The position numbers and the translations under genes were made by a program. Below, one piece after another: positions 2,913-61,684 of a stretch of DNA of 64,000 nt. Source of the stretch: Escherichia phage FL31. Each line of letters starts with the position of its first letter. The first letter of the stretch is position 1. The DNA lies in sequence record PP400782; one strand, given 5' to 3'. The notes beneath the pieces were generated by a model. It searched no databases and was not told where the DNA came from. It saw only the letters and a list, made by a program, of their open reading frames with translations.

Positions 2913-2953
2913 TGGTACAGGACTATAATAACATAACCTGTACCAAAGTAAAC
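2913..2953 (-). promoter_or_regulatory. early-type promoter (GTTTAC -35, 17-nt spacer, TATTAT -10)
   Basis: Minus-strand read; 8-bp inverted repeat GGTACAGG/CCTGTACC flanks the -10. Confidence 0.5.
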
Positions 2954-2957
2954 ATTT

Positions 2958-3329
2958 TTATTTGATTTTTGTCCACTTAGCTGAATCAATAACACCTTTT
3001 GCTTTAATCTTCTCAATTAATGACTCTGCGCGATTTCTGGCATTTTCGTACCATACAACATCTTCAGAGTAACCAGTTTCTTCATCTTCGTAAGTTTTAG
3101 AACGAATACAGCCATAAACTGTAGAATTCAGACGGTAAATTTCACCAGTGAAAAAGTTTTCGATTTCGATATGATAACAAAAATCGTCTGAAGGGCCGTC
3201 AGGAGTTGTACAATAAACCACATCACCTTGAACTGAACGAACCATCCACTGTAACTCGTTAACAACTTGAGATTTATATCCATCATGGTCACGGCATTTA
3301 ATTGTAGCATTTAAATTGATAGTGTTCAT
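2958..3329 (-). CDS. hypothetical protein (123 aa)
   Basis: ORF track; early-type promoter upstream at 3362-3400. Confidence 0.5.
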   Translation of the reverse strand: MNTINLNATIKCRDHDGYKSQVVNELQWMVRSVQGDVVYCTTPDGPSDDFCYHIEIENFFTGEIYRLNSTVYGCIRSKTYEDEETGYSEDVVWYENARNRAESLIEKIKAKGVIDSAKWTKIK

Positions 3330-3361
3330 TTTATTCTCCGGTTGTTTTATTGATTAGGTGG

Positions 3362-3400
3362 TACAAGTCTATAGTAACACATCCTACAGGAGAGTAAACA
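3362..3400 (-). promoter_or_regulatory. early-type promoter (GTTTAC ... TACTAT)
   Basis: Minus-strand read, upstream of ORF 2958-3329. Confidence 0.45.
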
Positions 3401-3435
3401 TCTTTTTAAACTTTTTCTGCCCTAAACGCACAAAA

Positions 3436-3453
3436 GGGAGACCGAAGTCTCCC
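3436..3453 (-). terminator. intrinsic terminator hairpin with UUCG tetraloop
   Basis: GGGAGAC-UUCG-GUCUCCC on minus strand followed by UUUUG. Confidence 0.6.
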
Positions 3454-3458
3454 TAAAA

Positions 3459-3638
3459 TTATGCAACAACCTTTCCAAAACGAGAAGCATCATCTCGAAG
3501 AACTGCACGTGCTCTGCGCATGATCTTCTCAACTGTTTGATTAATACGAGAGTTCGACCCACGCTTGTATCCAGCGCGTTTAGAGGTACCATCAACTTTC
3601 TTTTCAACTGCTTTCTTTGCTTTAGCTTGTTTTGCCAT
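3459..3638 (-). CDS. small basic protein (59 aa), below ORF-track size cutoff
   Basis: Hand translation MAKQAKAKKAVEKKVDGTSKRAGYKRGSNSRINQTVEKIMRRARAVLRDDASRFGKVVA; followed by hairpin terminator 3436-3453. Confidence 0.4.
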   Translation of the reverse strand: MAKQAKAKKAVEKKVDGTSKRAGYKRGSNSRINQTVEKIMRRARAVLRDDASRFGKVVA

Positions 3639-3902
3639 TATAAATTCTCTTTAAATGAAAATGCAGGACTTATTGACATTGCCTGCGCAAGCCCTCAAGG
3701 GGAACATAGGTTTTGGATATTTAACGACAGGATAACCATAAACCTCGTCATCATACCAACCACGTCTTAGACAGATAACCTTTTTCTGACGCGTGATAGT
3801 ACAAAATACATTCAAGAGGTACACCGTAAAACTGCCGGGGACTTAAAACTATAATGATTCGCAAATCATTAATCAGACAGTTCGACGGCTCCTCGATTTA
3901 AC

Positions 3903-4151
3903 TTACTTTAGGGTAATAACAAAATGACGAACTGCTTTACGTGCGGCAGAAGCCAAAGGCTTAGCATATTTCAGTTCATCTTTTGCTTCCAGTTCAGAGG
4001 CCAAAGCTGCCTGGACCGGGTTCAGATGTTTGAAATATCGCAGGATTTCAAGAGCTTCGGCTTCAACATCGATAGATGCGCCATAGTTTTCGTGACCATT
4101 ATTCCATGCGTTACGTTGCAGTTCAAGAGCGTGTTGTAATTGTTTAATCAT
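3903..4151 (-). CDS. rIII: lysis inhibition accessory protein rIII
   Basis: 82 aa, MIKQLQHALELQRNAWNNGHENYGASIDVEAEALEILRYFKHLNP near-identical to T4 rIII. Confidence 0.9.
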   Translation of the reverse strand: MIKQLQHALELQRNAWNNGHENYGASIDVEAEALEILRYFKHLNPVQAALASELEAKDELKYAKPLASAARKAVRHFVITLK

Positions 4152-4267
4152 TTTAAATTCTCAATTCGAGATAATATTTAGTAACCACGTTTGTCTGAAT
4201 TTCACCTTCTTTCGACAAGTCTCTCAGTTGTAGGCTACCGCTTAGAAGAGTGTTCTCTTCATATAGT

Positions 4268-4275
4268 TATTTATA
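4268..4275 (-). promoter_or_regulatory. possible late promoter TATAAATA upstream of rIII
   Basis: Minus-strand TATAAATA about 115 nt upstream of rIII start. Confidence 0.4.
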
Positions 4276-4608
4276 TCACTTATAAAGACACGGAATAGCT
4301 TTATAGTGGCATGTTACGAATTTCTGTTTAATTTCTTTAGGTTGTTTAAGTCCCAAAGCCACAAATGGATGTGGAACATTTCGAATTTGTCCAACCGGTA
4401 GTGGAGTCAAATCACCGACTTCAACAAAACCTTCAGGAACATCAGGACCTACAGAATGAACTACACATAGTTCAGGAACTTCACCTTGAACACGTTTACC
4501 AATCACAAGTCCTGATTCGGTAACTTCTTCATCACCTGCTTGAGCGGGTTCAGAAACCAGAATAACATATTCACCAACAGCACGAATTGGGAGTTGTACT
4601 TCAGACAT
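4276..4608 (-). CDS. 31: co-chaperonin (GroES-like) gp31
   Basis: 110 aa, [34 protein letters not shown]...[14 protein letters not shown] matches T4 gp31. Confidence 0.92.
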
Positions 4609-4665
4609 CTTATTTCCTTGTTGTTTGACGATAGATTAATAATACCATACTATTCGTAAAGCATA

Positions 4666-4974
4666 TTACATAAGAAGCAAACGTTCTACCGGAGTACCAT
4701 CAACCGAAATTACTTTATCAAGACGGAAAGAACGCCACTGACCTAACTTGGTATCGAATGCTCGAACTGATTCACGAGGTTCATAACGAACTTCTGTTGC
4801 CGGATTGTTATTTTCATATTTGACTTCAAGTTCATCGCGGGAAGCAAACATAGTACGAACATCACCGTTAGCCTTTTCAAATACAACACAATGAACGCCT
4901 ACAGACAGAATAGTTTTAATACGTTCACGAAGAACCATAGTTTCTTGTTCAGTTAAAATCATATTATTCACCAC
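4666..4974 (-). CDS. hypothetical protein (102 aa)
   Basis: ORF track; between cd and 31. Confidence 0.5.
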   Translation of the reverse strand: MVNNMILTEQETMVLRERIKTILSVGVHCVVFEKANGDVRTMFASRDELEVKYENNNPATEVRYEPRESVRAFDTKLGQWRSFRLDKVISVDGTPVERLLLM

Positions 4975-6537: not shown

Positions 6538-6657
6538 AACAATCCTTAGGAGATATAAACAGATTCTGATTCAACAATACCTTTAACCGGATTAGACAGG
6601 CTAAGTTGGTAGTGCTCAGATTTATGACCATTCTCGATAGTAATGAGATAGCTCTCA

Positions 6658-6894
6658 TTATAGTGTTCCATATACTCGAGTTGCTTCAACAAGACCATCA
6701 CTGCCTAATTTAAGATTAGTAATTTGGTCACCATCTTTAGGATTAACGATTATGAGAAAAGAACGTGGAGATTCTTGAATAACTCGTAATGTTGCATCTT
6801 GGAAACGTTCAGACACTTTATTGATGAGTGCTTGAGCAAATTCTTTTACTTTAATCTGAAATTCGTGTACTGTAATTGGGTTTTCACTTAGCAT
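6658..6894 (-). CDS. hypothetical protein (78 aa)
   Basis: ORF track. Confidence 0.45.
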   Translation of the reverse strand: MLSENPITVHEFQIKVKEFAQALINKVSERFQDATLRVIQESPRSFLIIVNPKDGDQITNLKLGSDGLVEATRVYGTL

Positions 6895-6910: not shown

Positions 6911-6950
6911 TGGTAGAGTCATCATATCACAACTCTACGGTGTTGTAAAC
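6911..6950 (-). promoter_or_regulatory. early-type promoter (GTTTAC ... TATGAT)
   Basis: Minus-strand read; 7-bp inverted repeat GTAGAGT/ACTCTAC flanks -10. Confidence 0.45.
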
Positions 6951-8716: not shown

Positions 8717-8717
<1 letters not shown>

Positions 8718-9016
8718 TATTTTATTCCTAAGAAAGTTTCAAGAATACGAATGTTATGCTCGCGCCGGTCTTTATTAATTTCAGCAACGTTTTTATTAAT
8801 TGACGTACTTCTAACGTTTGAAGAAATAAATTTAATCATATGACTTTTGAGTTGTTGCAAATCCAACCCTTTTTCTTTAGCAGCTTTACGAAGAGCTTTA
8901 CCTGCTTCATCTAGTGCCTTTGCTGCATCTTTGTCATAATTGACAAGTGACATTCCACGGCAGATATCAATATACTCATCAGACCGTTTGATGTAATTCT
9001 CTAGTAATGTTTTCAT
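8717..9016 (-). CDS. hypothetical protein (99 aa)
   Basis: ORF track; SD GAGGAAA upstream; early-type promoter 9037-9074. Confidence 0.5.
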
Positions 9017-9036: not shown

Positions 9037-9074
9037 ATAGGAGCATTATACTCTGCTCCCGAGAGTTTGTAAAC
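9037..9074 (-). promoter_or_regulatory. early-type promoter (GTTTAC ... TATAAT)
   Basis: Minus-strand read; inverted repeat GGAGCA/TGCTCC flanks -10; near-duplicate of promoter at 38200-38237. Confidence 0.5.
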
Positions 9075-9579: not shown

Positions 9580-9932
9580 TCTGAGAGCTTCCTGAGGTCT
9601 TCTGCAAAGGAATCGAAGGACCTGTTGATTTGTTTTTCGACCAATCCTGGTTTACTTGCCACCACGTTCTTCTTCTTCGAATCCTTACGGAGCTTTTCAT
9701 TTTCAGCCTTAAGTTGGTCAACTAAAACACGGTTCTTATAAGTCATTTCTTCGATTGACTGATATTGAACCTTGAAGTCGTCTAATACTTTAGCATTGTT
9801 TTTAGCAGTCTCTTTTACTGTAGCCAATTCAGTATTCAGCGAATCGACTTTATGGTTCAGAAATGCTATTGTTACAGTAGCAACAACCGCAAAAGCTGCC
9901 ACTACAATATATGATGCATTTACTTTAAGCAT
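9576..9932 (-). CDS. inner-membrane spanin (i-spanin), PseT.3-like
   Basis: 118 aa; N-terminal TM segment YIVVAAFAVVATVTIAFL then charged coiled-coil region. Confidence 0.6.
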   Translation of the reverse strand: MLKVNASYIVVAAFAVVATVTIAFLNHKVDSLNTELATVKETAKNNAKVLDDFKVQYQSIEEMTYKNRVLVDQLKAENEKLRKDSKKKNVVASKPGLVEKQINRSFDSFAEDLRKLSE

Positions 9933-10420
9933 GTTTGAATAATCTCAATGATTTCGTCTCGGGATAATCCATTGATAAGAACTGTTTTAGGCCCGTCAGT
10001 TTGGATTTTGTATGATTCAAACAATACACACAACTCTTCTGCTGTATGATATGGGCTTGAGATTCCGAGACGGTTGAATTTGTCGGTAAGAGGGTCGCAA
10101 ATGATGTAGAATTTGATACCTGCGATATGTACGTTTGGTTGACTAATATTAATGAACACATTAGCGTCATATTTAGTCAAATTGTTTTGAAGAAATTCTA
10201 CCATAGCATTAACTGCTTCCGGCATCGCTTCGCGTTTCTCTTCAGCGTATCGGGTGGAATACTCTTTTTGTTTTACTTTCTTTTTAAGATTTTTGGCCAG
10301 TGTAACACGTAGGTCAGTAAGATAACCAACTGGACGTCCTTTCTTAAAGACCCGGATTCCGTCAGTTGTGTCTCCAAAAGCGGTTACGACCATATCGTTA
10401 GTAATCAATTGCATATTCAT
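9920..10420 (-). CDS. alc: Alc-like protein (transcription termination on cytosine-containing DNA)
   Basis: Position between 63 and spanins as in T4; start moved to internal ATG (MNMQ...) because SD GAGGAG precedes it and the longer ORF would overlap promoter 10441-10480. Confidence 0.5.
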   Translation of the reverse strand: MNMQLITNDMVVTAFGDTTDGIRVFKKGRPVGYLTDLRVTLAKNLKKKVKQKEYSTRYAEEKREAMPEAVNAMVEFLQNNLTKYDANVFINISQPNVHIAGIKFYIICDPLTDKFNRLGISSPYHTAEELCVLFESYKIQTDGPKTVLINGLSRDEIIEIIQTCLK

Positions 10421-10440: not shown

Positions 10441-10480
10441 GATAAAAGCCATAGTAACACCTTCCTTGGTGTTTGTAAAC
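10441..10480 (-). promoter_or_regulatory. early-type promoter (GTTTAC ... TACTAT)
   Basis: Minus-strand read; between gene 63 stop and alc. Confidence 0.45.
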
Positions 10481-10482
10481 CA

Positions 10483-11616
<1,134 letters not shown>

Positions 11617-11627: not shown

Positions 11628-11662
11628 TTTAAATTGTACCACAATCCTTGTGGTATGTAAAC
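11628..11662 (-). promoter_or_regulatory. early-type promoter (GTTTAC ... TACAAT) upstream of gene 63
   Basis: Minus-strand read; -35 overlaps denA stop codon. Confidence 0.4.
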
Positions 11663-12601: not shown

Positions 12602-13692
12602 CGTTATGTTCGATTGAGCTCGCTAATTCTCAACCCGTTCTCTTATGAACTGCTACATATTACTATGCAGACCAGACTATATCACAATCCCAGAGGGATT
12701 CTCCCCATTTCGAGTCGCTTGACCCTACGTCCGAAGACTAGTCGTTGAACCTTGCTTTGCAATTGTCGCCGTGCCATCGTTTATATGTTGATGGTGATAA
12801 ATCTTTCTTATCACAATATGGACAATTCAATTGAATTCTATTTGGATTTAATTTACATCTATCATTATGTTTTAGATAAAATCCAGGACCTTTACCAATG
12901 TGACCGCAGAAATCACATGTGATTTCTTTTTGTGCAGGATGGGTTCCGTTCTTAACCATTTCTAATGTTTTTGCTGATGTTCTTTTCTTATGGTCTTCTG
13001 ACAAGAAATGATGTGAACCGTCATTTACCCGTTTTGATTGAGTTTCTGACTGCATTTTACCACCGCAAAATACATGAGTACCTTCTTTTATAGCTGCAAT
13101 ATTGCGTTCTTTAACTTTTGCAATATGCTCAGCTTGTTGAAAATTATGTATACCTAATGCAACTCTATTTAAATTAGATTTACGCTGTATTTCACCGTCT
13201 AAAAGATGAAATGTACCATTTTCTATCTTAGATTTAATAGAGGCAATATTTTTAGCTCGTACTTCAGGGATATTAAAAATCTGGATTTCTCTAGATTTTG
13301 CGGCTTTAGAAGCTAATTCAGAAATTTCTTCAGGAGAATATTTCATTCTAAGCTTTATAGCGTGACAAGCCTGGTAATCTTTTTGAGCTAAATGTATATC
13401 ATAATGTTCCTGTATAGAAAGGCACATCAAATTATCTAAATCATTATTTTCACGGTTACCGTCTTTATGATGGATTTCGTATGTTCTTCCATCAGAATCT
13501 TTAGGTATAGGTCCGTTAGCATCTATCCAAATTTTTCTATAGTTCAATTGTGCATCCTCTTAAAAGTATAATCATATTTATATTATACTAATTAAAGGTG
13601 CAAGCAAAACCTTGGCTGCTAGTTTTCCTATAAAGGACTTTCCAGCAATTAAAGGAGTTTTCGATAAACGTTACCGTTTAAAGGCGCATTTT
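12602..13692 (-). mobile_element. group I self-splicing intron in nrdB carrying a homing endonuclease ORF (about 1091 nt)
   Basis: NrdB reading frame interrupted between RFYVSFA and (C)TFNFHK; exon 1 ends in U, intron ends in G; boundaries inferred by frame reconstruction, not by folding. Confidence 0.7.
12738..13547 (-). CDS. HNH homing endonuclease, I-TevIII-like, full length (269 aa)
   Basis: N-terminal HNH motif YEIHHKDGNRENNDLDNLMCLSIQEHYDIH; C-terminal Cys/His-rich region CDFCGH...CPYCDKK...WHGDNCK; lies inside nrdB intron. Confidence 0.8.
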   Translation of the reverse strand: MNYRKIWIDANGPIPKDSDGRTYEIHHKDGNRENNDLDNLMCLSIQEHYDIHLAQKDYQACHAIKLRMKYSPEEISELASKAAKSREIQIFNIPEVRAKNIASIKSKIENGTFHLLDGEIQRKSNLNRVALGIHNFQQAEHIAKVKERNIAAIKEGTHVFCGGKMQSETQSKRVNDGSHHFLSEDHKKRTSAKTLEMVKNGTHPAQKEITCDFCGHIGKGPGFYLKHNDRCKLNPNRIQLNCPYCDKKDLSPSTYKRWHGDNCKARFND

Positions 13693-14368
13693 ACGCAAAA
13701 GATACATAAAAACGAATAGCTTCTAAGGCATTAATAACGTGTAAACAGAGGTAAAGAGATTTCATTAAAGCACGTTTAGCTTCGGCTTCTTGTTTAATAG
13801 CTCGGTTTAAACGAAAATCAGCATCAGGAGATTCTTTAGCTAGTTCTACAAATTCTTTAGCATTTTCCCAATAACGAGTTTTAACCAGAACATCATCGTA
13901 ATATTTACCTATTGATTCAGCTCGTTTCATGATTGCTTCGTCTAATACAATCTCATCAAATACCTTAGATGGATCGGTATAAAGATTTCGCATAATATGA
14001 GTGTACGAACGAGAGTGAATAGTTTCACTGAATGTCCATGTTGCAACCCACGTATCTAATGAAGGGTCGGAAATCAGTGCCATAAGTACCGCAGATGGGG
14101 CCCTGCCTTGGATAGAATCTAATAATGATTGATACTTAAGATTGTTTGTAAAGATGTCCTGTTGGAACTGAGGAAGCTTATTGAACTGCGCAGAGTCCAA
14201 CATCAAGTTTACCTCTTCTGGGCGCCAGAAAAACGACAATTGCTTTTCAATAAGTTCTTCAAAAACTTTATGTCGCTGAATATCATAACGTGCGAGGCCA
14301 AGACCAGAACCAAAGAACATTGGTTCATTCAAAACATCGACTTGTTGTGTGTTAAAAACTGTACTCAT
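13693..14368 (-). CDS. nrdB: ribonucleotide reductase small subunit NrdB, exon 1
   Basis: MSTVFNTQQVDVLNEPMFFGSGLGLARYDIQRH...LHVINALEAIRFYVSFA matches NrdB; start placed at ATG matching T4 N-terminus. Confidence 0.8.
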
Positions 14369-14422
14369 TATATTTCTCACTTAGTTATTAACTCATCCAT
14401 GAGTAAATTATAATCAAAAGTC

Positions 14423-17020: not shown

Positions 17021-18716
<1,696 letters not shown>

Positions 18717-18778: not shown

Positions 18779-19171
18779 CTACTTTTTAAAAGTTTTTTGC
18801 AAAAGTTTGATGATTTCGTCGACGTTGGTTTCATCTACGATACAATGGATTTTTGTTACACCTAAAGTTATACCTTCGTTAGTAGGTTGAGGCTTTACTA
18901 AATCTACCTCAGTAAAGTATTTGAACTCGTCATGATAAATCTCAAAATAAGTTTCAATTTCACCACCGGCAGAACATACCGTACCGTCTTCCATAGTTAC
19001 ACTTACTACGTTTGACGTATCGCTATCATAATCAGGTTCCATTCCGTTTACAACAAAACTAGGCCCGTGGAGTTCAATCAATTTTAACATCTTAGCGTTA
19101 TTGTGTGGTGCTTCTTGAACAAAGTCGTCTTTAAATAAAGGGTTAATGATATAAGATTTTCCGATTTTCAT
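18779..19171 (-). CDS. hypothetical protein (130 aa)
   Basis: ORF track; early promoter 19192-19229 upstream. Confidence 0.5.
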   Translation of the reverse strand: MKIGKSYIINPLFKDDFVQEAPHNNAKMLKLIELHGPSFVVNGMEPDYDSDTSNVVSVTMEDGTVCSAGGEIETYFEIYHDEFKYFTEVDLVKPQPTNEGITLGVTKIHCIVDETNVDEIIKLLQKTFKK

Positions 19172-19191: not shown

Positions 19192-19229
19192 GATAGGTCT
19201 ATACTAACACATCCAGGTAAGAAGTAAAC
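19192..19229 (-). promoter_or_regulatory. early-type promoter (GTTTAC ... TAGTAT)
   Basis: Minus-strand read; directly downstream of gene 32 terminator. Confidence 0.5.
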
Positions 19230-33095: not shown

Positions 33096-33368
33096 TTAGT
33101 TGTTAGAATACATCGTCAAATGGCGATAAATATTTTCAAAACCTTCATTGAATTCACTAATCAGTGTTTTCTTTTCTTCGGCAGTTAAATTTGTAATTAG
33201 TTTTCTGAACGAATTCTGATTTAGCTGCCGACCATCTTTTTTAATTCCAATCTCATTCAAGAATCCGATGAAATTTGCTCGGTCTTCAACAATATCTTCC
33301 CTCGAGAATTTAATCAAAATAGAAGCAACCGTAATAATTTCACGTACAATTTCAATATCTTTATTCAT
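33096..33368 (-). CDS. asiA: anti-sigma70 protein AsiA
   Basis: 90 aa; MNKDIEIVREIITVASILIKFSREDIVEDRANFIGFLNEIGIK matches T4 AsiA. Confidence 0.92.
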   Translation of the reverse strand: MNKDIEIVREIITVASILIKFSREDIVEDRANFIGFLNEIGIKKDGRQLNQNSFRKLITNLTAEEKKTLISEFNEGFENIYRHLTMYSNN

Positions 33369-33414
33369 AACGTTTTATTCATTCCATTTGGTTGATATGA
33401 GTATAGTACCATTA

Positions 33415-33576
33415 TCAGTGTTGATTGTAAACAGCTTTTTCTACACTTTTAACGTAATCAGTGTAGTCTTCCTGTTCATACGAGTGTAAGGCCAAGAACG
33501 TGGCTAATAGTTCATTATAGACTAAAGCCTCACGCTCACGTTCTGCCTCTACTACGTTCTGAAGATTATGGCTCAT
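33415..33576 (-). CDS. hypothetical small protein (53 aa)
   Basis: ORF track, start moved to internal ATG to avoid overlap. Confidence 0.35.
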   Translation of the reverse strand: MSHNLQNVVEAEREREALVYNELLATFLALHSYEQEDYTDYVKSVEKAVYNQH

Positions 33577-35229: not shown

Positions 35230-35862
35230 TCACAGTACGTTAGTTACAAGGGTAATGATTTCTTTGGACACATTAGGGAAGTCAATGTAAGTATATTTAC
35301 CACCGATCTTAATCTTAACATCATTTTCAAGAGAAGTAAACAGCTTTGATTCAGTTTCTGACATGTTGTATGCAAAGATTCTAAGAGCGCCATCTCGACG
35401 AATTTCGATCTGACGAATACCTAGAACTCGTTTTGCAAATCGAACTTCCAAGTTACTACGGTTTTCACCAATTTCCTTAACTTCAACTTTATCTTTAATA
35501 TTTTCAAAAACAAAGTTTGCTAGTTCATGCATTTCAGGAGTAACTCCACGTGCTTTTCTAGTGTTACGTTTCTGAAGAAGTTCTGGAGCATTTTCTTGAG
35601 CAAATAGGTCTGCAGCTTTTTGGATAATATTCATTGCTTCGCCTGTTGCTACAAGTCCATCACCAGATTTTTCGACTAAACCTTTCTTAATCAATACACC
35701 AATGTTAGAGTTAACAACCGATGCATTGTATTCTGCTTCCAGAGCTTCACGGACATTGGCAGCAGTGGTGAAGTTGTTCTTAATGATATAAACCATTATT
35801 GCAGCAGTTTTTTCATTCAGAACGTTTTCAGAAGCTTTGATGATGTAAGTAACTTTAGACAT
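35230..35862 (-). CDS. motA: middle-transcription activator MotA
   Basis: 210 aa; MSKVTYIIKASENVLNEKTAAIMVYIIKNNFTTAANVRE...NSNIGVLIKKGLVEKSGDGL matches T4 MotA. Confidence 0.88.
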   Translation of the reverse strand: MSKVTYIIKASENVLNEKTAAIMVYIIKNNFTTAANVREALEAEYNASVVNSNIGVLIKKGLVEKSGDGLVATGEAMNIIQKAADLFAQENAPELLQKRNTRKARGVTPEMHELANFVFENIKDKVEVKEIGENRSNLEVRFAKRVLGIRQIEIRRDGALRIFAYNMSETESKLFTSLENDVKIKIGGKYTYIDFPNVSKEIITLVTNVL

Positions 35863-35892: not shown

Positions 35893-35930
35893 GATAGGTC
35901 TATAATATCATGTTTGAAGCACATGTAAAC
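35893..35930 (-). promoter_or_regulatory. early-type promoter (GTTTAC ... TATTAT) upstream of motA
   Basis: Minus-strand read; directly downstream of gene 52 terminator. Confidence 0.5.
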
Positions 35931-37716: not shown

Positions 37717-38163
37717 TTAATAACTCTGCAGAATGAATTTGAAATTATCTGCCAGAAGACGGTTCATTTCAGTGAGTGTTTGATATTCTGATGTATGGTT
37801 GCGAGTGAATGCCAGAGCCAATTGACCTTTACCATAACCAGTGGTCAGTGGTTTCATGTTCTTAGCTGCAACAAAGATTACATCATATTCAATATTGTTA
37901 GTGCCCATGGTACGGGCTAGTTGCGAACGGCCTTGACGAATGTGAGAAAGAATTGCATCCAACCCTTGTTTAGAACGTTGACGTCCTACAAAGAACCGTG
38001 CTGCTACTTGTCGCCAATCGGATGAACCTTTAACAAAGAAGTAAAAACCTTCACGAGAACGAAACTCTTTAGAAACTTCGGAACCGTATTCGCCATTACG
38101 AACTACTGCAACAACTTCACCGCCAACTGCCAGAAGGTCTTTACGAGTTAAATATTTGGACAT
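37717..38163 (-). CDS. ndd: nucleoid disruption protein Ndd
   Basis: 148 aa; [30 protein letters not shown]...[40 protein letters not shown] matches recalled T4 Ndd. Confidence 0.65.
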
Positions 38164-38199: not shown

Positions 38200-38237
38200 A
38201 TGAGAGCATTATACTCTGCTCTCAAGAGTTTGTACAA
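38200..38237 (-). promoter_or_regulatory. early-type promoter (TTGTAC ... TATAAT) upstream of ndd
   Basis: Minus-strand read; inverted repeat GAGAGCA/TGCTCTC flanks -10. Confidence 0.5.
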
Positions 38238-38239: not shown

Positions 38240-38440
38240 TTATTCGGCCATATCAGAACGTTCAAAAAGCTCTTCAACAGTTAAACATTCAGTGTCATCT
38301 TCAATAAAGAATCGAGTCCAACACGTTGGGGCGATACAGTTATGAGTTTGTCCGGCGATAGAAGCTACACGAATAAGCTGCTGACCATTATTCAGAACAA
38401 ATTTTTCACCAATTTCAACATCTTTAAAAAGCTTAGCCAT
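38240..38440 (-). CDS. hypothetical protein (66 aa)
   Basis: ORF track; promoter 38463-38498 upstream. Confidence 0.45.
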   Translation of the reverse strand: MAKLFKDVEIGEKFVLNNGQQLIRVASIAGQTHNCIAPTCWTRFFIEDDTECLTVEELFERSDMAE

Positions 38441-38462
38441 TTTGTGTTCCTCATGTTTCAGT

Positions 38463-38498
38463 AAGACTACTATACCATAATCCTACCGTGATGTAAAC
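38463..38498 (-). promoter_or_regulatory. early-type promoter (GTTTAC ... TATAGT)
   Basis: Minus-strand read. Confidence 0.45.
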
Positions 38499-38690: not shown

Positions 38691-38954
38691 TCATATCTCA
38701 ACTTCCGCGAGTTCCATATATCCTTTGTTGATAACCTCTTTAAGGTCTTTAGAAAGGATAACACTAAAATGGTCGTTCATATGTCCGTTAACTAAACGAG
38801 TTATTTCGGCTTCAGATGACATATAAGGCACGTCTGAGTCCCAGTGAGATAGTCCCAAATGGGTATAAATCATCCCTTCGTCATCTGCGGTGTTGTACAT
38901 TGAAACAAATTCGCCTGTTACTTTATGTTTTGCGTAGAAAAATTTAAATTTCAT
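38691..38954 (-). CDS. hypothetical protein (87 aa)
   Basis: ORF track; promoter 38971-39010 upstream. Confidence 0.45.
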   Translation of the reverse strand: MKFKFFYAKHKVTGEFVSMYNTADDEGMIYTHLGLSHWDSDVPYMSSEAEITRLVNGHMNDHFSVILSKDLKEVINKGYMELAEVEI

Positions 38955-38970
38955 GATGTTATCCTCTTTT

Positions 38971-39010
38971 AGATAGGACTACTATATCATAGTCCTACTT
39001 AGTTGTAAAC
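38971..39010 (-). promoter_or_regulatory. early-type promoter (GTTTAC ... TATAGT)
   Basis: Minus-strand read; inverted repeat TAGGACTA/TAGTCCTA flanks -10. Confidence 0.5.
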
Positions 39011-44426: not shown

Positions 44427-44444
44427 AAGCTCCCGAAGGAGCTT
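44427..44444 (-). terminator. UUCG hairpin overlapping gene 39 stop codon
   Basis: AAGCUCC-UUCG-GGAGCUU then U/A-rich tract. Confidence 0.45.
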
Positions 44445-46277: not shown

Positions 46278-46310
46278 AAGGTATTCTATCATCCGAAATC
46301 TAAAGCAAAA
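46278..46310 (-). promoter_or_regulatory. possible MotA-dependent middle promoter for gene 39
   Basis: Minus-strand TGCTTTA (MotA-box-like) 14 nt upstream of TAGAAT -10-like hexamer. Confidence 0.3.
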
Positions 46311-46325
46311 AGGGCCGAAGCCCTT
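46310..46325 (-). terminator. intrinsic terminator upstream of gene 39
   Basis: AAGGGC-UUCG-GCCCUU then UUUGCUUU. Confidence 0.55.
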
Positions 46326-47587: not shown

Positions 47588-47626
47588 GATAGGTCTATAG
47601 TATCATAGACTATAGTTGTTGTACAT
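47588..47626 (-). promoter_or_regulatory. early-type promoter (ATGTAC ... TACTAT)
   Basis: Minus-strand read. Confidence 0.4.
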
Positions 47627-48150
47627 CATTTTAGCAAAATAAAATCAACTTGTTCTGCCAATGAACGTCTAAACATTAATTGACAACTTCCGAGGATGAA
47701 ATCAGGTGCTTCATAGACCGCGATGTAGTATCCTTTAGCTTTCAAGAGTTCAACATCTACCTGGTCATCAAACCATGCATAAACCGCGTCAACGCTTTCA
47801 AATCCAAAATAGAACCCTTGAGCCCAATCTTCACTCAATTCAAATGTGTACTCAATTCTATGGTATCTTAAGATATTTTGTTCAAGAAGTTTGTCTTCAT
47901 TTACTGTAGGACGATTAGGGACATTATAGTTGTCGCCGTGATGGTAGAAGTTACCTGAGAGTATTCCATGCTTATCAAGGAACTCCCATGTTTCTTCAGA
48001 GTTGTCAGTGCCGGACCAACCATAAGGTGAGCGAGGTTCTTTATTCCAAGAGGTTTCCCAAATTCTGACGGCTTTACCGTCTTCGATAGCAATTCCTGGT
48101 AATGATTCACGTTGAGTACAAAAACTACGTTCTACGCGGTAAACTAACAT
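47626..48150 (-). CDS. hypothetical protein (174 aa)
   Basis: ORF track; SD GAGGAG; promoter 48164-48205 upstream. Confidence 0.55.
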   Translation of the reverse strand: MLVYRVERSFCTQRESLPGIAIEDGKAVRIWETSWNKEPRSPYGWSGTDNSEETWEFLDKHGILSGNFYHHGDNYNVPNRPTVNEDKLLEQNILRYHRIEYTFELSEDWAQGFYFGFESVDAVYAWFDDQVDVELLKAKGYYIAVYEAPDFILGSCQLMFRRSLAEQVDFILLK

Positions 48151-48163
48151 ATTATTCTCCTCT

Positions 48164-48205
48164 GGTTGATATGGTTATAATATCAAAACCAGAGGAGAAG
48201 TAAAC
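48164..48205 (-). promoter_or_regulatory. early-type promoter (GTTTAC ... TATTAT)
   Basis: Minus-strand read; 10-bp inverted repeat TCCTCTGGTT/AACCAGAGGA whose downstream arm contains the SD of ORF 47626-48150. Confidence 0.5.
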
Positions 48206-49156: not shown

Positions 49157-49651
49157 TTAATTAAGGATATTAACCACAGCACTACGTGGAACTACACTAA
49201 AATCACCTGCATGAACTACGTTCAGAAGTTCAACACCGTCTTCAATCCACTGATCAGTTACCCATCCATTTACTGGACCAGCGAATGGGCGTCGAATTGA
49301 AACATATTTACACAACAAATCAGTAGGCTCAATAGGCTTAATCAGAGTACCGTACATACAAGCGATATCCATATCAATACAGATATCTTTAACGGGTTCT
49401 ACTTCTTCAATCAACAGTTCAAAGTCGGTGCTTGGAATGGCGGTAGTAGAAATTGTACCATATGAATTTTTAATTTCTAAGAATAACCAAGGGCCTTCGG
49501 CTTGTTTGATGAAGTTAACAATAGTGAAACTATTACCTTGAGTGGCGCCTAAAATTTCACAAAACTTTTCATAAGCTCGCACTGAAGCACCGTACCAGTT
49601 AATTTGTTTTTCGTCTTTCAGGATGTAAGTAGCCGTAGTATTGATATTCAT
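49157..49651 (-). CDS. paralogue C of tandem gene family (164 aa)
   Basis: C-terminal GWVTDQWIEDGVELLNVVHAGDFSVVP matches the conserved C-terminal block of A and B. Confidence 0.55.
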   Translation of the reverse strand: MNINTTATYILKDEKQINWYGASVRAYEKFCEILGATQGNSFTIVNFIKQAEGPWLFLEIKNSYGTISTTAIPSTDFELLIEEVEPVKDICIDMDIACMYGTLIKPIEPTDLLCKYVSIRRPFAGPVNGWVTDQWIEDGVELLNVVHAGDFSVVPRSAVVNILN

Positions 49652-49671: not shown

Positions 49672-49712
49672 AGGATAGAAAGATTATACTCCAACCGTCC
49701 TTGGTTGTAAAC
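49672..49712 (-). promoter_or_regulatory. early-type promoter (GTTTAC ... TATAAT) for paralogue C
   Basis: Minus-strand read. Confidence 0.45.
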
Positions 49713-53554: not shown

Positions 53555-53594
53555 TGATAAAGGTATAGTATCATCATCGGAAGAGTTTGTACAC
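53555..53594 (-). promoter_or_regulatory. early-type promoter (TGTACA ... TACTAT) between the two mod genes
   Basis: Minus-strand read. Confidence 0.4.
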
Positions 53595-54175
53595 TAAAAA
53601 TTCAACATTTTCAAATGAATGATTTTGTATAATCTAGATAAAGGGTCATATTCTAAGTCTTCAATTTCCACAATCTCAAATCTAGAGATACCTGAGACCA
53701 TGTACTCTTGTTCAGATTCAATCATATCTAGGACGTCAACACGCTTTTCTTCCATAACATGCTTAGGGTTCTTTCCGGCGAGTACAATGTTAATCATGTT
53801 TTGGTAGTAATCAAAAATGAATGGAGCATTCCTGAGACTAAGAATAGTGTACGTCTGATATTCCCATCTCCCAGAGAATTGACGAGCTGTACTGAAATCA
53901 GTTGTGAACGATGTTACTCGTCCAGGAGACCAATGGCATCCAACAGAAAGAAGAGAAAGACGTTCTACTTCTTCTGGAGTTACACCACGGTAGAGTTCTA
54001 CTGGTACTGTAGAAGTCATATGCTTACGAACAAGATGGTCTAATTCATAGTGGAAATCCGGGTCTTCCTTAGAATCAGTGCAAGCCCAGAGAATGTTTTG
54101 TTCTTGGCGGGTGAATTTGCTATCAATAAGATTTGTTAGGTATTCACGTTCTTGAAGTTCAGATTGACATGTCAT
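53594..54175 (-). CDS. modB: Mod-family ADP-ribosyltransferase (193 aa), ModB-like
   Basis: R-S-E motif candidates: LYRGV, FSTARQ, ESEQEYMV; shares ILW(A/Q)C..., YRG, F(I/A)F(D/N)... blocks with ModA-like gene. Confidence 0.55.
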   Translation of the reverse strand: MTCQSELQEREYLTNLIDSKFTRQEQNILWACTDSKEDPDFHYELDHLVRKHMTSTVPVELYRGVTPEEVERLSLLSVGCHWSPGRVTSFTTDFSTARQFSGRWEYQTYTILSLRNAPFIFDYYQNMINIVLAGKNPKHVMEEKRVDVLDMIESEQEYMVSGISRFEIVEIEDLEYDPLSRLYKIIHLKMLNF

Positions 54176-54192
54176 GATAGACCTCCATTTAA

Positions 54193-54231
54193 AGATAAGC
54201 CTATCATAACATGAGAGGAGGGAATGTAAAC
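54193..54231 (-). promoter_or_regulatory. early-type promoter (GTTTAC ... TATGAT) upstream of modB-like gene
   Basis: Minus-strand read. Confidence 0.45.
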
Positions 54232-55671: not shown

Positions 55672-55712
55672 TAAGTAAGAATATCTTAACACAGTTTTTA
55701 GCGGTTGTAAAC
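55672..55712 (-). promoter_or_regulatory. early-type promoter (GTTTAC ... TAAGAT)
   Basis: Minus-strand read; downstream of soc terminator. Confidence 0.4.
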
Positions 55713-55726: not shown

Positions 55727-55748
55727 AAGGAATCCCGAAGGATTCCTT
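55727..55748 (-). terminator. intrinsic terminator after soc
   Basis: AAGGAAUCC-UUCG-GGAUUCCUU then UUUUUUG; 9-bp stem. Confidence 0.7.
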
Positions 55749-58208: not shown

Positions 58209-58247
58209 AGTATTCTCCAGAGGCCTTAAATTAATAAGGCCATCTTA

Positions 58248-58742: not shown

Positions 58743-58932
58743 TTACAAAGATTGCTTTGTCACCATTTATATCTGTGACTTCATATGTAGTGCCTTCATA
58801 CTGTGGAATATTCCAAATTACACCATCATTAGCTTTTACGCTAATATGGCATTGGTGTTTTGAAACAACTTCATAATCTTCAAAACTTGTAAAAACACTA
58901 ATTTTAGAACCAGTGCAAATTGCAGTAGTCAT
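58735..58932 (-). CDS. hypothetical protein (65 aa)
   Basis: ORF track. Confidence 0.4.
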   Translation of the reverse strand: MTTAICTGSKISVFTSFEDYEVVSKHQCHISVKANDGVIWNIPQYEGTTYEVTDINGDKAIFVID

Positions 58933-58933
58933 T

Positions 58934-59593
58934 TTAACCTCGATTCATAAATGCATTAAATATTTGGTCATCAACAGAAATTTCTAATTCGACTTCAATT
59001 GCTTCAGCCTTTTCTTCAGGTGGTAATTCGTATCCACACACTACAATTTTTTCATCGATATCAAAATATACAGAAGCAATACGATTAATGTTATTTTCAG
59101 TTAAGTCCAAATCAACATCAACATCTTTTTGGCCTACACTTAGAGGATAACTAATACGGGTTATTTTATTATCTTTAACAAAGAGTCCACCAACATACTC
59201 TGTACTGCGTTTGAAGTTTACACGTTTCCGAATTGAAAGATATGATACATCTTTACCGTGAGCTCGGCTCATAGGACATAATGAATAGCTAGAATAAGAG
59301 ATGTCAAATCCTACACCTTCAATATGAGCCAACGCGTCATGATTAAACCAATTATAATCATATGCCAAATCCATTATATTGTAATATGTGAAAGGCACTG
59401 GATTAACATCATATGTTGTACCTTTAAAATCAGCCCAGGCAACGATTTCGTTATCTTTAACAATTACAAAAATTACACCAATATGGTATCCGTTATTATT
59501 TTCATTCGGCGTTATATTATAACATTGTGCATTAGGAAATTTACCATATTTAAATGGTGCGTTTTTGTGCATGTAATAAATCATATTATTCAC
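58934..59593 (-). CDS. hypothetical protein (219 aa)
   Basis: ORF track. Confidence 0.5.
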   Translation of the reverse strand: MNNMIYYMHKNAPFKYGKFPNAQCYNITPNENNNGYHIGVIFVIVKDNEIVAWADFKGTTYDVNPVPFTYYNIMDLAYDYNWFNHDALAHIEGVGFDISYSSYSLCPMSRAHGKDVSYLSIRKRVNFKRSTEYVGGLFVKDNKITRISYPLSVGQKDVDVDLDLTENNINRIASVYFDIDEKIVVCGYELPPEEKAEAIEVELEISVDDQIFNAFMNRG

Positions 59594-59879
59594 CTGTGAT
59601 TTCGGTTACGATATCTTTGTTATCGAAATTAGGGTCACAATACAAAACATAGTTGTACTGCATAATACCGCCAGACTTAAGTTGTTCAACAACTTTATTA
59701 ACCATGTTAGGACGGTCTCGTTTAGTGATGTTCATGATATCAGAGAAGATTTGTTGTTCAACCTCTTCTTGATTTGCAGTCATTGACCACTCACAGAGGT
59801 CTTTATCATAACCTGCCGTAACTGGAGCCGGTGCACATGATACTGCAAGTAAGATTGCTGCCAATGATAACTTTTTCAT
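59586..59879 (-). CDS. sp: spackle periplasmic protein Sp (superinfection exclusion / lysozyme inhibitor)
   Basis: 97 aa; signal peptide MKKLSLAAILLAVSCA then GYDKDLCEWSMTA...GGIMQYNYVLYCDPNFDNK matches T4 Sp. Confidence 0.82.
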   Translation of the reverse strand: MKKLSLAAILLAVSCAPAPVTAGYDKDLCEWSMTANQEEVEQQIFSDIMNITKRDRPNMVNKVVEQLKSGGIMQYNYVLYCDPNFDNKDIVTEITGE

Positions 59880-59899
59880 TTTAACTCCTTAGTTGATTT

Positions 59900-59938
59900 G
59901 ATAGGACTACTATACTATAGTCCATCTATAATGTAAAC
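59900..59938 (-). promoter_or_regulatory. early-type promoter (GTTTAC ... TATAGT) upstream of sp
   Basis: Minus-strand read; inverted repeat GGACTAT/ATAGTCC around -10. Confidence 0.5.
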
Positions 59939-59942
59939 AAGT

Positions 59943-60191
59943 TTATTCTTTTTCGCGAATAATAATTACTTGTTGAGGCTGCTGAGCCGATTTCTTTTCG
60001 GCAACGATAGACCAAATTAAAGTTCCAATCCAACCAACCATCGTCCAGTTAAAGAGTAAAGATACAAAGAAGATTGCTGTTGTGCTTTTTGTGCCACGAA
60101 TAAGTGCGATTACCCAAGGCAACATGTAAATGATGATTGAACCAATACCTGCGATTAAAACTGCTACTGAACTAGCTACGAATAATTCCAT
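59943..60191 (-). CDS. small integral membrane protein (82 aa)
   Basis: Two predicted TM segments (VAVLIAGIGSIIIYMLPWVIALI, IFFVSLLFNWTMVGWIGTLIWSIV). Confidence 0.5.
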   Translation of the reverse strand: MELFVASSVAVLIAGIGSIIIYMLPWVIALIRGTKSTTAIFFVSLLFNWTMVGWIGTLIWSIVAEKKSAQQPQQVIIIREKE

Positions 60192-60252
60192 GTTAATTTC
60201 CTCTTGATTTGTTATGTTTATAGTATCTTGTTTTAACTTTGGTGTAAACCAA

Positions 60253-60621
60253 TTAATTAAATTTGTTTAAACGTTCAATACACTGGACGTAGTTATTCGC
60301 GATTTGTTTCTGGGTAGGCTCTTTACCAGTTGTTTCAACATAGCGAATGAATGCGATTTCAGTGGCCTGTAGACAATGTTCTTTAACGCGTTGTTCTTTT
60401 GACAATGCTACAGTATCAGAGTCACGATAACGTTGAGCATGGGCATCAGCTTGAATCATTCGATTACCTACAGTAACCGGGTCTTCCACTTCAACTTTAG
60501 GTTGGTCATACTGTTTAACATTCGGATTGTAAATTAATTGGCCAACGTTATTAGGGATAAAGCCATGGGCACCACATCCGGTTAATCCAAATACCATTGC
60601 TAAAGCGATTAATTTTTTCAT
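60253..60621 (-). CDS. putative lipoprotein (122 aa)
   Basis: Signal peptide with lipobox MKKLIALAMVFGLTGC. Confidence 0.5.
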   Translation of the reverse strand: MKKLIALAMVFGLTGCGAHGFIPNNVGQLIYNPNVKQYDQPKVEVEDPVTVGNRMIQADAHAQRYRDSDTVALSKEQRVKEHCLQATEIAFIRYVETTGKEPTQKQIANNYVQCIERLNKFN

Positions 60622-60639
60622 TTCAATTTCCTCTGTAGT

Positions 60640-60679
60640 TGATAGAAAGATAGTAACACAGTATGTGGTGCTTGTAAAC
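60640..60679 (-). promoter_or_regulatory. early-type promoter (GTTTAC ... TACTAT)
   Basis: Minus-strand read; between dmd and lipoprotein gene. Confidence 0.45.
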
Positions 60680-60692
60680 AGTTATTTTAAAA

Positions 60693-60881
60693 TTATTGAA
60701 AACCTGCTTCGAAAACTTTCTCGTCATTAATAAATGCTTTAACTAATGCTTTGTTCACTTCAGCAAGTTGTACCGTAACCCACTCGATTTCTTCGCGATC
60801 ACCTGATAACATGATATCTTTAGTGAACATCTCACCGCTTTTAAACCAACCGATAAAAGTAACTTTAGTTAATTTGCTCAT
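60693..60881 (-). CDS. dmd: Dmd antitoxin (inhibitor of host RnlA/LsoA RNases)
   Basis: MSKLTKVTFIGWFKSGEMFTKDIM...EVNKALVKAFINDEKV matches T4 Dmd; ATG overlaps upstream stop (ATGA). Confidence 0.75.
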   Translation of the reverse strand: MSKLTKVTFIGWFKSGEMFTKDIMLSGDREEIEWVTVQLAEVNKALVKAFINDEKVFEAGFQ

Positions 60882-61195
60882 ATTTCCTCGCAAAATGCCC
60901 ATTCAGCGTGATAAACTGTAGCGCCTTTAGTATCATTCATTTGAACTACATCTACCGGAGAAATTACTCGATAGAGACGTGGTTCACCTCCATAAGAGCG
61001 TGCTGCTCGTCCTGCATAAATCTTTGCTAAACCGATATCTTCAGTAAAGAATACACGATCCAAGTTTTTCTTACGTCCAGTTTCAGACAGAACTCCTGTT
61101 TCTTCAGGAGGACAAAGCATGTTTTCGATGTTAGCTGAACTACTTGAACCGTGATAAAAAATCTTAAATTCTGCTTTACAATCGATGGTTTTCAT
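60878..61195 (-). CDS. hypothetical protein (105 aa) translationally coupled to dmd
   Basis: ORF track; contains FYHGSSS followed by Tyr/Arg-rich segment; promoter 61209-61249 upstream; no T4 counterpart recalled here. Confidence 0.5.
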   Translation of the reverse strand: MKTIDCKAEFKIFYHGSSSSANIENMLCPPEETGVLSETGRKKNLDRVFFTEDIGLAKIYAGRAARSYGGEPRLYRVISPVDVVQMNDTKGATVYHAEWAFCEEI

Positions 61196-61208
61196 TTTGT
61201 TCTCCAGT

Positions 61209-61249
61209 AGTTGATAGGTCTATAATAACACAACTACTGGAGAAGTAAA
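61209..61249 (-). promoter_or_regulatory. early-type promoter (GTTTAC ... TATTAT) for the 105-aa ORF/dmd pair
   Basis: Minus-strand read; 9-bp inverted repeat CCAGTAGTT/AACTACTGG, downstream arm overlapping the SD. Confidence 0.5.
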
Positions 61250-61250
61250 C

Positions 61251-61625
61251 TTAAAAACGTAATTTAGATACATCTGCGTTGATTTCGGTTTGGTTTGCGT
61301 CGTATGCAATTAAACGAACCGCTTTAGATGGGTCATTCAATGCATAGAAATGATGGAACATTGCTCGAACGATATCACCATTTACGAGTTCTACCTGGAT
61401 AGGAGAACCTTTTTCGAGTTGGAAATGTTCATAAGCTTTGATGGTTCGCAGATAATCAAGTTTTTGATTTCCGGCTCCAACAATTTGTACGATACGTTTG
61501 CCCATGTTTTCCATACGAGATACAATAGTTTTAGGAGCAAGAATAACGTAGGTTGCCAGCGGAGAAACTACTTCAACAGTTGTGTTTTCGGTGATTGCAG
61601 TAAAAATTGCTTGAGACATATTCAT
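61251..61625 (-). CDS. hypothetical protein (124 aa)
   Basis: ORF track; own promoter 61645-61684; no T4 counterpart recalled between dmd and 41. Confidence 0.5.
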   Translation of the reverse strand: MNMSQAIFTAITENTTVEVVSPLATYVILAPKTIVSRMENMGKRIVQIVGAGNQKLDYLRTIKAYEHFQLEKGSPIQVELVNGDIVRAMFHHFYALNDPSKAVRLIAYDANQTEINADVSKLRF

Positions 61626-61644
61626 AATGTTTTCCTCTTGGTTT

Positions 61645-61684
61645 GTGTAAGTACATCATATCATGCCTAGAGGAAGATGTAAAC
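61645..61684 (-). promoter_or_regulatory. early-type promoter (GTTTAC ... TATGAT) for the 124-aa ORF
   Basis: Minus-strand read; directly downstream of gene 41 terminator. Confidence 0.45.

Follow-up and report, generated by a model that had tools for sequence, protein, structure and literature searches.

Within a 64,000-nt stretch of the genome of Escherichia phage FL31 (sequence record PP400782; hereafter, the window), a promoter cassette recurs in front of minus-strand genes, and many of its copies contain an inverted repeat whose arms lie on either side of the -10 element, one in the spacer that separates it from the -35 and the other just downstream. What a repeat placed across the -10 element might do is the question addressed here. 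An earlier note on this DNA had proposed that transcripts reading through from upstream hide the Shine-Dalgarno (SD) sequence of the next gene in a hairpin, whereas transcripts started at the promoter leave it free. Our analysis makes it probable on balance that the cassettes, which are early promoters of the type known from phage T4, encode hairpins that form only in read-through RNA and that one class of these hairpins (class a) masks the SD. In T4, the reference system for phage gene regulation, both the abrupt halt of early-gene expression and the cutting of only some GGAG sites by RegB are poorly explained.

Sampled over 8 kb, the window shows 97-98% identity to T4-like coliphages, JM17 and mogra among them. 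According to the map of open reading frames (ORFs), the gene order is that of T4: first 30.x, cd, pseT, alc, rnlA, nrd, td, frd, 32, 59, 33 and rnh, next the tail-fibre genes 34-38, which are on the plus strand, and after them the series asiA, motA, 52, ndd, rIIB, rIIA, 39, motB, dexA, dda, mod, 61 and 41. The minus strand carries the early genes. Across the whole window, the strict motif GTTTAC-N17/18-TAT[ATG][AG]T has 12 matches, 12/12 on the minus strand, compared with an expectation of 0.23 and a shuffle maximum of 2; it is thus ~50-fold above chance and confined to the early-gene strand. Relaxing the -10 to TAnnnT yielded 21 sites, all on the minus strand, and an extra copy has the variant -35 TTGTAC at 38237-38232, in agreement with the at least 20 minus-strand sites counted previously. 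An SD and a start codon lie directly downstream of 20 of the 21 relaxed-motif sites. The site at 35312-35341 (GTTTAC-N18-TAAGAT; site 35341) is located within the motA coding sequence, has no downstream start codon, and is either a chance match or an internal promoter. A generic sigma-70 consensus scan found 70 sites versus 65.5 expected in shuffles; only the T4-specific motif discriminates.

The sites share with the early promoters (Pe) of T4 the -35 GTTTAC, the 17-18 nt spacer, the extended -10 TGn (16/20 sites; background TG dinucleotide frequency, 7%), the -10 TAnnnT and an A/T-rich upstream element (73% A+T in the 23 nt upstream of the -35 versus 62% background). They also share the strand, the positions before early-gene orthologues and the dyads, which are present in T4 itself, and do not differ in the promoter proper. 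The ORFs that they lead include homologues of 30.7, 30.8, cd.2, alc, rnlA, frd.2, motA, ndd, ndd.1, modB, mrh.2, sp and imm, and five promoters lead ORFs without a T4 homologue. T4 has promoters at corresponding places, including the annotated Pe133295, and the window promoters of 30.7, 30.8, cd.2, alc, rnlA, motA, asiA, ndd, sp and modB are among those orthologous to T4 early promoters. The sites are therefore known T4-type sigma-70 early promoters, as the term early-promoter cassette in the earlier note had implied. The motif AGNCCTATCAA, which according to the earlier note often follows, is exact at only 4/21 sites and present with at most two mismatches at 7/21, the conserved positions after the -10 being C4, T6, A7, C9 and A11. 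The name Pe133295 in the T4 record (NC_000866) sets the +1 of the cd.2 promoter at the 7th base following its -10, with which the conserved A7 agrees. The stop codon of the upstream gene is mostly 2-7 nt ahead of the -35, so the promoter and a ~20-nt leader take up the entire intergenic space, and a hairpin must be encoded in the free positions of the promoter. The reviews describing T4 early promoters (PMC2988021, PMC1524935) mention 'additional regions of consensus', but not complementarity between spacer and leader.

The symmetry was assessed by pairing each spacer with its own -10-to-AUG segment and with the same segment of every other promoter, a derangement control that keeps composition and promoter consensus. 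In the window (n=20), the own spacer/leader duplex has an energy of -9.46 kcal/mol versus -6.50 +/- 0.44 kcal/mol for deranged pairs (0/20,000), and in T4 (n=35) the values are -11.31 and -6.84 +/- 0.38 kcal/mol (0/20,000). When non-redundant promoters of the window, T4 and ten further loci were pooled (n=67), the helix score was 6.88 versus 4.68 +/- 0.13 (0/20,000 derangements), and a helix of at least 6 bp was present in 33 of the 67. Ribosome-binding sites without an upstream early promoter (n=114) exhibited no pairing excess (z -1.0), whereas promoter-bearing ones reached z 7.7 in identical fixed windows. Relative to dinucleotide shuffles, 10 of the 11 window cassettes folded as RNA gave z values of -2.6 or lower (down to -7.3); the exception is 61684 (z -1.4). 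An IMG/VR scan with AGTTGTTTAC-N17/18-TANNAT produced mostly single chance matches in unrelated contigs and was discarded, and a MotA-based locus search returned two near-identical loci only.

The dyad symmetry is thus real, copy-specific and statistically strong, exceeding both derangements and dinucleotide shuffles. The eight copies named previously (2913, 6911, 9037, 38200, 38971, 48164, 59900 and 61209) correspond to promoters 2953, 6950, 9074, 38217, 39010, 48205, 59938 and 61250 in Table 1. In all eight, one arm lies in the spacer and its partner follows the -10, and the description that the arms differ while the symmetry is kept is borne out by the superiority of own over deranged pairs. 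For these copies, whose arms had been given as 6-10 bp, the helices measure 14 bp in 61250, 13 bp in 48205, 10 bp in 2953, 7-8 bp in 6950, 39010 and 38217, and 5-6 bp in 9074 and 59938.

Whether the symmetry acts as DNA or as RNA can be judged from the helices themselves. Internal mismatches in the strong helices comprise six G.T and no A.C, and folding is more favourable for the sense than for the antisense strand (-17.3 versus -15.3 kcal/mol, p 0.009). The asymmetry survives a composition-matched control in class b, the hairpins that abut the -10 (-2.67 versus -0.64 kcal/mol, p 0.004); a purely compositional origin is therefore ruled out for class b, though not for class a. The G.U pairs and the higher stability of the sense strand point to selection on the sense RNA. 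Furthermore, the leaders, from +1 to AUG, contain no internal helices (mean z -0.27; 0/67 above 2), whereas spacer-by-leader pairing has a mean z of 2.69, with 29/67 above 2. These two findings together indicate that the structure exists only in RNA entering from upstream, and the helix-free leaders also indicate that palindromes are not merely accumulating in unconstrained DNA.

The same findings bear on a DNA-level explanation, in which the palindromes act as cruciforms or as recombination or strand-switch hot-spots that shuffle promoter-plus-ORF cassettes. It can draw on the homology between phages that ends exactly at the edges of the 48205 cassette (-35 or ATG), on the five window promoters that lead ORFs without a T4 homologue, on T4 positions 133300-133313, which are noted as the 'inverted complement of previously reported sequence' and equal the loop between the cd.2 dyad arms, and on the recombination mediated by related stem-loops that has been shown experimentally for phi1/RB49 (PMC2839356). 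However, helix mismatches are G.T and never A.C, the stability advantage of the sense over the antisense strand exceeds what composition explains, class-a arms target the SD, equally unconstrained leaders contain no palindromes, and cassette recombination needs only the shared promoter consensus and no dyad. We consider this explanation very unlikely.

A neutral origin, in which templated mutation of quasi-palindromes perfects chance inverted repeats in unconstrained sequence without any function, was also considered. Many arms are perfect across 10-15 bp, and templated quasi-palindrome mutagenesis is documented for T4 rII. A process of this kind appears extremely improbable, however, given that helices are not in excess inside the leaders, that wobble pairs are tolerated only on the sense strand, that a preferred register sets the stem flush with the extended -10, and that orthologous promoters across genera keep dyads with unrelated arms and a fixed geometry.

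This last feature is seen at 30.7 and alc. The 30.7 promoter carries three different dyads at one place across lineages, namely GGTACAGG/CCTGTACC in the window, T4 and a close relative, GGTGAGAGTCT/AGACTCTCACC in Erwinia phage Virsaitis27, and CTCCGTTGTAT/ATACAACGGAG in a Karamvirus-like contig, where the SD is covered. At the alc promoter, a dyad of 7-17 bp with unrelated arms, of class a or b, is present in 8/9 lineages (T4, EcS1, Virsaitis27, Karamvirus, Kanagawavirus, Jiaodavirus, Marfavirus and Serratia phage 92A1); the exception is the alc promoter of the window itself (10480), which has no spacer/SD dyad. RNAalifold, applied to six of the alc lineages, recovered the spacer-SD helix with compensatory changes in 5 pairs. 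Compensatory differences also distinguish paralogous cassettes, such as GGGAGC/GCTCC in 9074, TGAGAGC/GCTCTCA in 38217 and GGGACC/GGTCCC in T4 7215. The embedded dyads are thus a conserved RNA-level feature that is confined to read-through transcripts.

Promoter positions that are free in sequence, namely the spacer and the bases after the -10, would accordingly encode an RNA hairpin in about half of the promoters. With transcription starting ~7 nt after the -10, the 5' arm would never be part of the promoter's own transcript, and the hairpin would therefore form only in transcripts from upstream promoters. The hairpins fall into two main classes. In class a, the 5' arm directly follows the -35 and includes an anti-SD stretch (TTCTCC...), and the 3' arm contains the SD. 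The members in the window are 61250 (14 bp), 48205 (13 bp), 61684 (7 bp) and 3399 (5 bp), together with a variant, 54231, in front of the modB-like gene, in which the -10 hexamer TATGAT and its flanks constitute the 5' arm and pair with ...CTATCATG..., including the start codon. The promoters of regB, alc, denV, nrdC.8 and ndd.4 are among the class-a examples of T4. The two longest helices in the window have folding energies of -21.7 kcal/mol (61250; z -5.5) and -23.9 kcal/mol (48205; z -7.3).

The stem of class b abuts the extended -10: position 14 of the spacer pairs with the first base after the hexamer, and an intercistronic hairpin results between the upstream stop codon and the downstream SD, with the SD unmasked. 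Members in the window are 2953, 6950, 9074, 38217, 38498, 39010 and 59938. When this register was applied to all 55 unselected promoters with an 18-nt spacer, 49.7% of the cells were paired versus 42.6 +/- 1.7 in shuffles (0/500), and the covariation score was 0.273 versus 0.183; the register also outperformed every slid one. A third, weaker class lies wholly in the spacer (11640-11656, 10457-10472 and 49689-49704 in the window; promoters 2458, 50973 and 167086 in T4); its core CCACA-AGGA-TGTGG recurs with the covarying variants ACACC..GGTGT, ACACA..TGTGT and ACGCCA..TGGTGT, and such in-spacer helices are mildly enriched (mean z 0.57; 12/67 above 2).

The cost of opening the SD and AUG was computed for read-through RNA and for promoter-initiated RNA. 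For class a (n=16, several phages), it amounts to 13.3 and 2.6 kcal/mol, respectively, a difference of +10.7 kcal/mol, whereas the corresponding values are 3.7 and 2.4 (+1.3) kcal/mol for class b (n=17), 6.1 and 3.2 (+3.0) kcal/mol for promoters without a spacer dyad (n=34), and 5.3 and 4.3 (+1.0) kcal/mol for ribosome-binding sites without an upstream promoter (n=113). Within the window, the rise is +15.3 kcal/mol at 61250, +16.7 kcal/mol at 48205 and +14.8 kcal/mol at 54231, +3 to +4 kcal/mol at 61684, 39010, 3399 and 55712, and ~0 at the remaining class-b sites. The predicted probability that the SD is unpaired is 0.00 in the read-through RNA of 61250, 48205 and 3399, and SD accessibility in own transcripts is 0.54-0.83 (0.74 at 61250). 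Masking of the SD by class-a hairpins is thus well supported computationally, in a minority of promoters. From these models, we infer that the hairpins form in vivo and that translation is reduced. Read-through RNA of class a would have a masked ribosome-binding site, and the promoter-proximal gene would be translated essentially only from its own early transcript; for the intercistronic hairpins of class b, RNA stability, insulation or processing are candidate roles.

The proposal that read-through RNA hides the SD and the promoter's own transcript leaves it free is therefore supported by folding for 61250, 48205 and 54231, where the opening cost rises by 15-17 kcal/mol, and receives weak support at the four sites with smaller rises. 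It is not supported for the -10-flush dyads at 2913, 6911, 9037, 38200, 38971 and 59900, where the class rise of +1.3 kcal/mol is at the baseline level. The statement that the 3' arm frequently overlaps the SD was not confirmed, since only two of the eight named copies (48164 and 61209) do so and the other six end 3-17 nt upstream of the SD. Because the -10-flush dyads leave the SD uncovered, sequestration of the SD accounts for only a minority of the copies cited.

Several observations weigh against reading the dyads as read-through-only, SD-masking hairpins. About half of the promoters, such as 60679, 60249, 55712, 19229, 11662 and 10480, have no spacer/leader dyad. Among the cited copies, the more frequent class is class b, which leaves the SD unmasked. 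At orthologous alc promoters the two classes substitute for one another, a hint that they share some function other than masking of the SD. Class a on its own shows no significant sense/antisense asymmetry, bona fide terminators precede some promoters, and no T4 5'-end or ribosome-profiling dataset was found in the searchable literature.

Stem-loops near early promoters have been described previously. Promoter-early stem-loop (PeSL) cassettes of phi1/RB49, PST/T4 and nt-1/KVP40 (Arbiol et al. 2010; Comeau et al. 2014) were interpreted as terminators and recombination sites. As in the window, they are repeated intergenic cassettes in which an AT-rich region and a sigma-70-type early promoter are combined with a stem-loop, an SD and a start codon; the stem-loop can be placed between the two promoter hexamers or overlap the -10. 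PeSL cassettes are also located beside variable ORFs and at homology breakpoints; in the window, at least one cassette (48205) lies at such breakpoints. However, RB49 stems consist of a G-run and a C-run followed by T-runs, whereas the window arms are unrelated in sequence and lack a T-run. Moreover, the T4/PST stem-loops lie 'just upstream' of the promoter according to a published figure legend, whereas those of the window straddle the -10, and SD masking was not proposed for PeSLs.

By analogy with PeSLs, the stem-loops could be terminators or attenuators that stop incoming transcription, leaving each gene to be driven by its own promoter alone. One PeSL stem-loop is reported to have reduced lacZ expression like a strong terminator (Arbiol et al.), although a drop in lacZ cannot distinguish termination from SD masking, and the RB49 cassettes 3201 and 9482 have stems straddling or following the -10 and then T-runs. 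An untranslated class-a gene could, in addition, provoke Rho-dependent polarity. By sequence, however, the dyads do not resemble a Rho-independent terminator (a G+C-rich stem with a short loop, directly followed by a U-run): among the 33 strong helices of the window, T4 and relatives, not one carries five or more T in the 8 nt beyond the stem. The loops of class a are at least 17 nt long, and loops of this length are unfavourable for intrinsic termination. Genuine terminator-like elements look different. Hairpins with a UUCG tetraloop and a T-run are present on the minus strand at 61692-61707, 55727-55748, 46310-46325 and 44427-44444 (for example, GGAGAC-TTCG-GTCTCC+TTT after gene 41), two of them just upstream of promoters 61684 and 55712. 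The window dyads resemble these T4 UUCG/intrinsic terminators in being intergenic RNA hairpins on the early strand, but they have 6-17 nt loops containing the -10, with neither a tetraloop nor a U-run, and a terminator scan flagged the UUCG hairpins upstream of some promoters and no dyad straddling a -10. Intrinsic termination was rejected on these sequence features, and we consider a terminator or attenuator role unlikely.

Hairpin-mediated translational coupling is a well-known mechanism that would also involve an SD masked in read-through RNA, which in this case would be released once a ribosome completing translation of the upstream gene opens the 5' arm. The upstream stop codon, 2-7 nt before the -35 in most cases, is suitably close, and from its first base to the start of the class-a 5' arm there are only 8-17 nt (median 12). 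A ribosome at a stop codon keeps ~8-12 nt downstream unwound. In this geometry, though, it would melt no more than the outer 0-4 bp of a stem of 13-14 bp, and class-b stems begin 13-16 nt after the stop, beyond its reach. With the stop-to-stem geometry being marginal, coupling by terminating ribosomes was rejected and appears quite unlikely.

The closest precedents for SD masking confined to read-through RNA are the T4 genes e, soc, 49 and I-TevI, in which the SD and/or AUG is paired in longer transcripts, and the transcript of the embedded promoter, which lacks the 5' strand of the hairpin, is translated (PMC3014915). The class-a cassettes have precisely the same promoter-inside-hairpin geometry. 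The T4 cases, however, involve late promoters (gp55, TATAAATA) and late-only translation, whereas the sigma-70 early promoters of the window would be expected to give early-only, promoter-autonomous translation, and class b differs from these precedents in leaving the SD unmasked. No earlier description of hairpins linking early promoters and SDs in T4 was found in the searchable literature beyond the late-promoter cases and the PeSL papers, older subscription literature being outside this scope, and an Rfam search of the window matched no family anywhere. On this comparison, the promoters are already known, and what appears to be new is the class-a masking logic at early instead of late promoters.

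A broader proposal, tentative and somewhat doubtful at present, is that early promoters throughout the Tevenvirinae also supply the 5' half of conditional RNA structures and so provide a hard-wired temporal gate, the mirror image of e, soc and I-TevI. Translation of immediate-early genes would then be strictly tied to the firing of their own promoters, and after early-promoter shut-off, read-through and middle-mode transcripts would be translationally silent at these genes. GGAG motifs would be structurally shielded from RegB, which could help explain RegB-resistant GGAG in longer transcripts; GGAG-containing SDs are not enriched among SD-masking promoters (11/16 versus 26/51, p 0.26). The -10-flush hairpins would represent a second class of read-through-only RNA element. 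Should such hairpins silence the next gene at a large share of early promoters, sequence alone would link promoter choice to translation in dozens of genes and many genera. For annotation and phage engineering it matters that the promoter spacers of these phages are not free sequence, and a terminator role should not be assumed for PeSL-type stem-loops of T-even phages.

Table 1. Early promoters of the window and the hairpins encoded in them (the first column gives the names used in the text; opening cost is the rise for SD and AUG in read-through RNA, in kcal/mol)
Promoter	Coordinates	Strand	Downstream gene and promoter elements	5' arm / 3' arm	Hairpin
61684	61655-61684	-	novel ORF 61251-61625; -35 61684-61679, -10 61660-61655	TTCCTCT within 61666-61675 / AGAGGAA within 61632-61641	class a, weak; 7 bp, z -1.4, opening cost +4.3
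61250	61200-61250	-	ORF 60878-61195; -35 61250-61245, -10 61227-61222	TTCTCCAGTAGTTG 61231-61244 / CAACTACTGGAGAA 61200-61213	class a; covers SD of ORF 60878-61195
60679	60650-60679	-	imm.1-like ORF 60253-60621		no spacer/leader dyad
60249	60220-60249	-	imm homologue 59943-60191		no dyad
59938	59899-59938	-	sp 59586-59879	core GGACT 59919-59923 / AGTCC 59904-59908	imperfect class b around -10; z -2.6
55712	55683-55712	-	mrh.2-like ORF		no spacer dyad; UUCG terminator hairpin 55727-55748 just upstream
54231	54173-54231	-	modB-like gene 53594-54175		hairpin 54173-54208; z -2.8, opening cost +14.8
49712	49683-49712	-	motB.1-like ORF 49157-49651		short in-spacer hairpin only
48205	48155-48205	-	ORF 47626-48150; -35 48205-48200, -10 48182-48177	TTCTCCTCTGGTT 48187-48199 / AACCAGAGGAGAA 48155-48167	class a; covers SD of ORF 47626-48150
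39010	38970-39010	-	novel ORF 38691-38954	TAGGACT in spacer, within 38991-39001 / AGTCCTA directly after -10, within 38970-38980	class b; z -3.0
38498	38459-38498	-	ndd.1-like ORF 38240-38440	CGGTAGGATT 38479-38488 / AGTCTTACTG 38459-38468	class b; z -3.2, two G.U pairs
38217	38201-38237	-	ndd 37717-38163; variant promoter, -35 TTGTAC 38232-38237, -10 38208-38213	TGAGAGC 38218-38224 / GCTCTCA 38201-38207	class b; z -3.4
35930	35902-35930	-	motA 35230-35862		no spacer/leader dyad
33432	33403-33432	-	90-aa ORF 33096-33368, asiA by position and length		no dyad
19229	19201-19229	-	frd.2-like ORF 18779-19171		no significant dyad
11662	11633-11662	-	rnlA 10483-11607	CCACA / TGTGG	entirely in spacer
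10480	10451-10480	-	alc 9920-10420	ACACC / GGTGT	in spacer
9074	9039-9074	-	novel ORF 8717-9016	GGGAGC 9055-9060 / GCTCC(T) 9039-9044	class b; z -2.6
6950	6913-6950	-	cd.2 6658-6894; orthologue of T4 Pe133295	GTAGAGT(T) 6931-6938 / (G)ACTCTAC 6913-6920	class b; z -3.4
3399	3335-3399	-	30.8 2958-3329	TCTCC directly after -35, 3389-3393 / GGAGA of SD, 3335-3339	short class a, 5 bp; P(SD unpaired) 0.00 in read-through versus 0.83 in own transcript
2953	2912-2953	-	30.7 2518-2883	TTGGTACAGG 2937-2946 / CCTGTACCAA 2912-2921	class-b-like, 10 bp, z -4.5; SD 17 nt further downstream, unmasked

Some further features of the cassettes were observed. Class-b promoters favour the non-consensus -10 TATAGT (59909-59914, 38981-38986 and 38469-38474 in the window; 20612 and 57990 in T4), whose last bases lengthen the stem into the hexamer and give stems of 10-12 bp with 6-nt loops in RNA folds. 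At these promoters, the quality of the -10 may thus be traded against the stability of the hairpin. In the region 48150-48205, homology stops at the ATG in phage ST2 and just before the -35 in Shigella phage Sf25, which has a different cassette there with its own 13-bp dyad, ATCAGTAGTTGAT/ATCAACTACTGAT; breaks of homology at cassette edges would fit promoter cassettes serving as recombination joints. The T4 record (NC_000866) describes positions 133300-133313, orthologous to 6921-6934 of the window, as an 'inverted complement' that 'corrects the early promoter Pe133295'. This 14-bp segment is exactly the loop, with the -10, between the dyad arms of the cd.2 promoter, and the inversion may be an old sequencing artefact at the hairpin or a real flip between inverted repeats.

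Other differences from T4 concern the genes themselves. Homologues of imm (64% identity) and imm.1 (32%), each with its own early promoter, lie at 59943-60621 between gene 41 and sp, unlike in T4, where imm and imm.1 adjoin genes 42 and 43. The nearby promoter-led ORFs 60878-61195 and 61251-61625 have no T4 homologue. The alc region is mosaic relative to T4: Alc (9920-10420) is ~53% identical to T4 Alc and 100% identical to Alc of Escherichia phage mobillu, whereas the nearby 30.7 is 93% identical to that of T4. The td gene (17021-17881) is a single uninterrupted ORF of 286 codons from which the T4 intron and I-TevI are absent. The nrdB region (12738-14380) consists of two ORFs of 269 and 229 codons that are ~140 bp apart, a gap that could represent an intron or an insertion.

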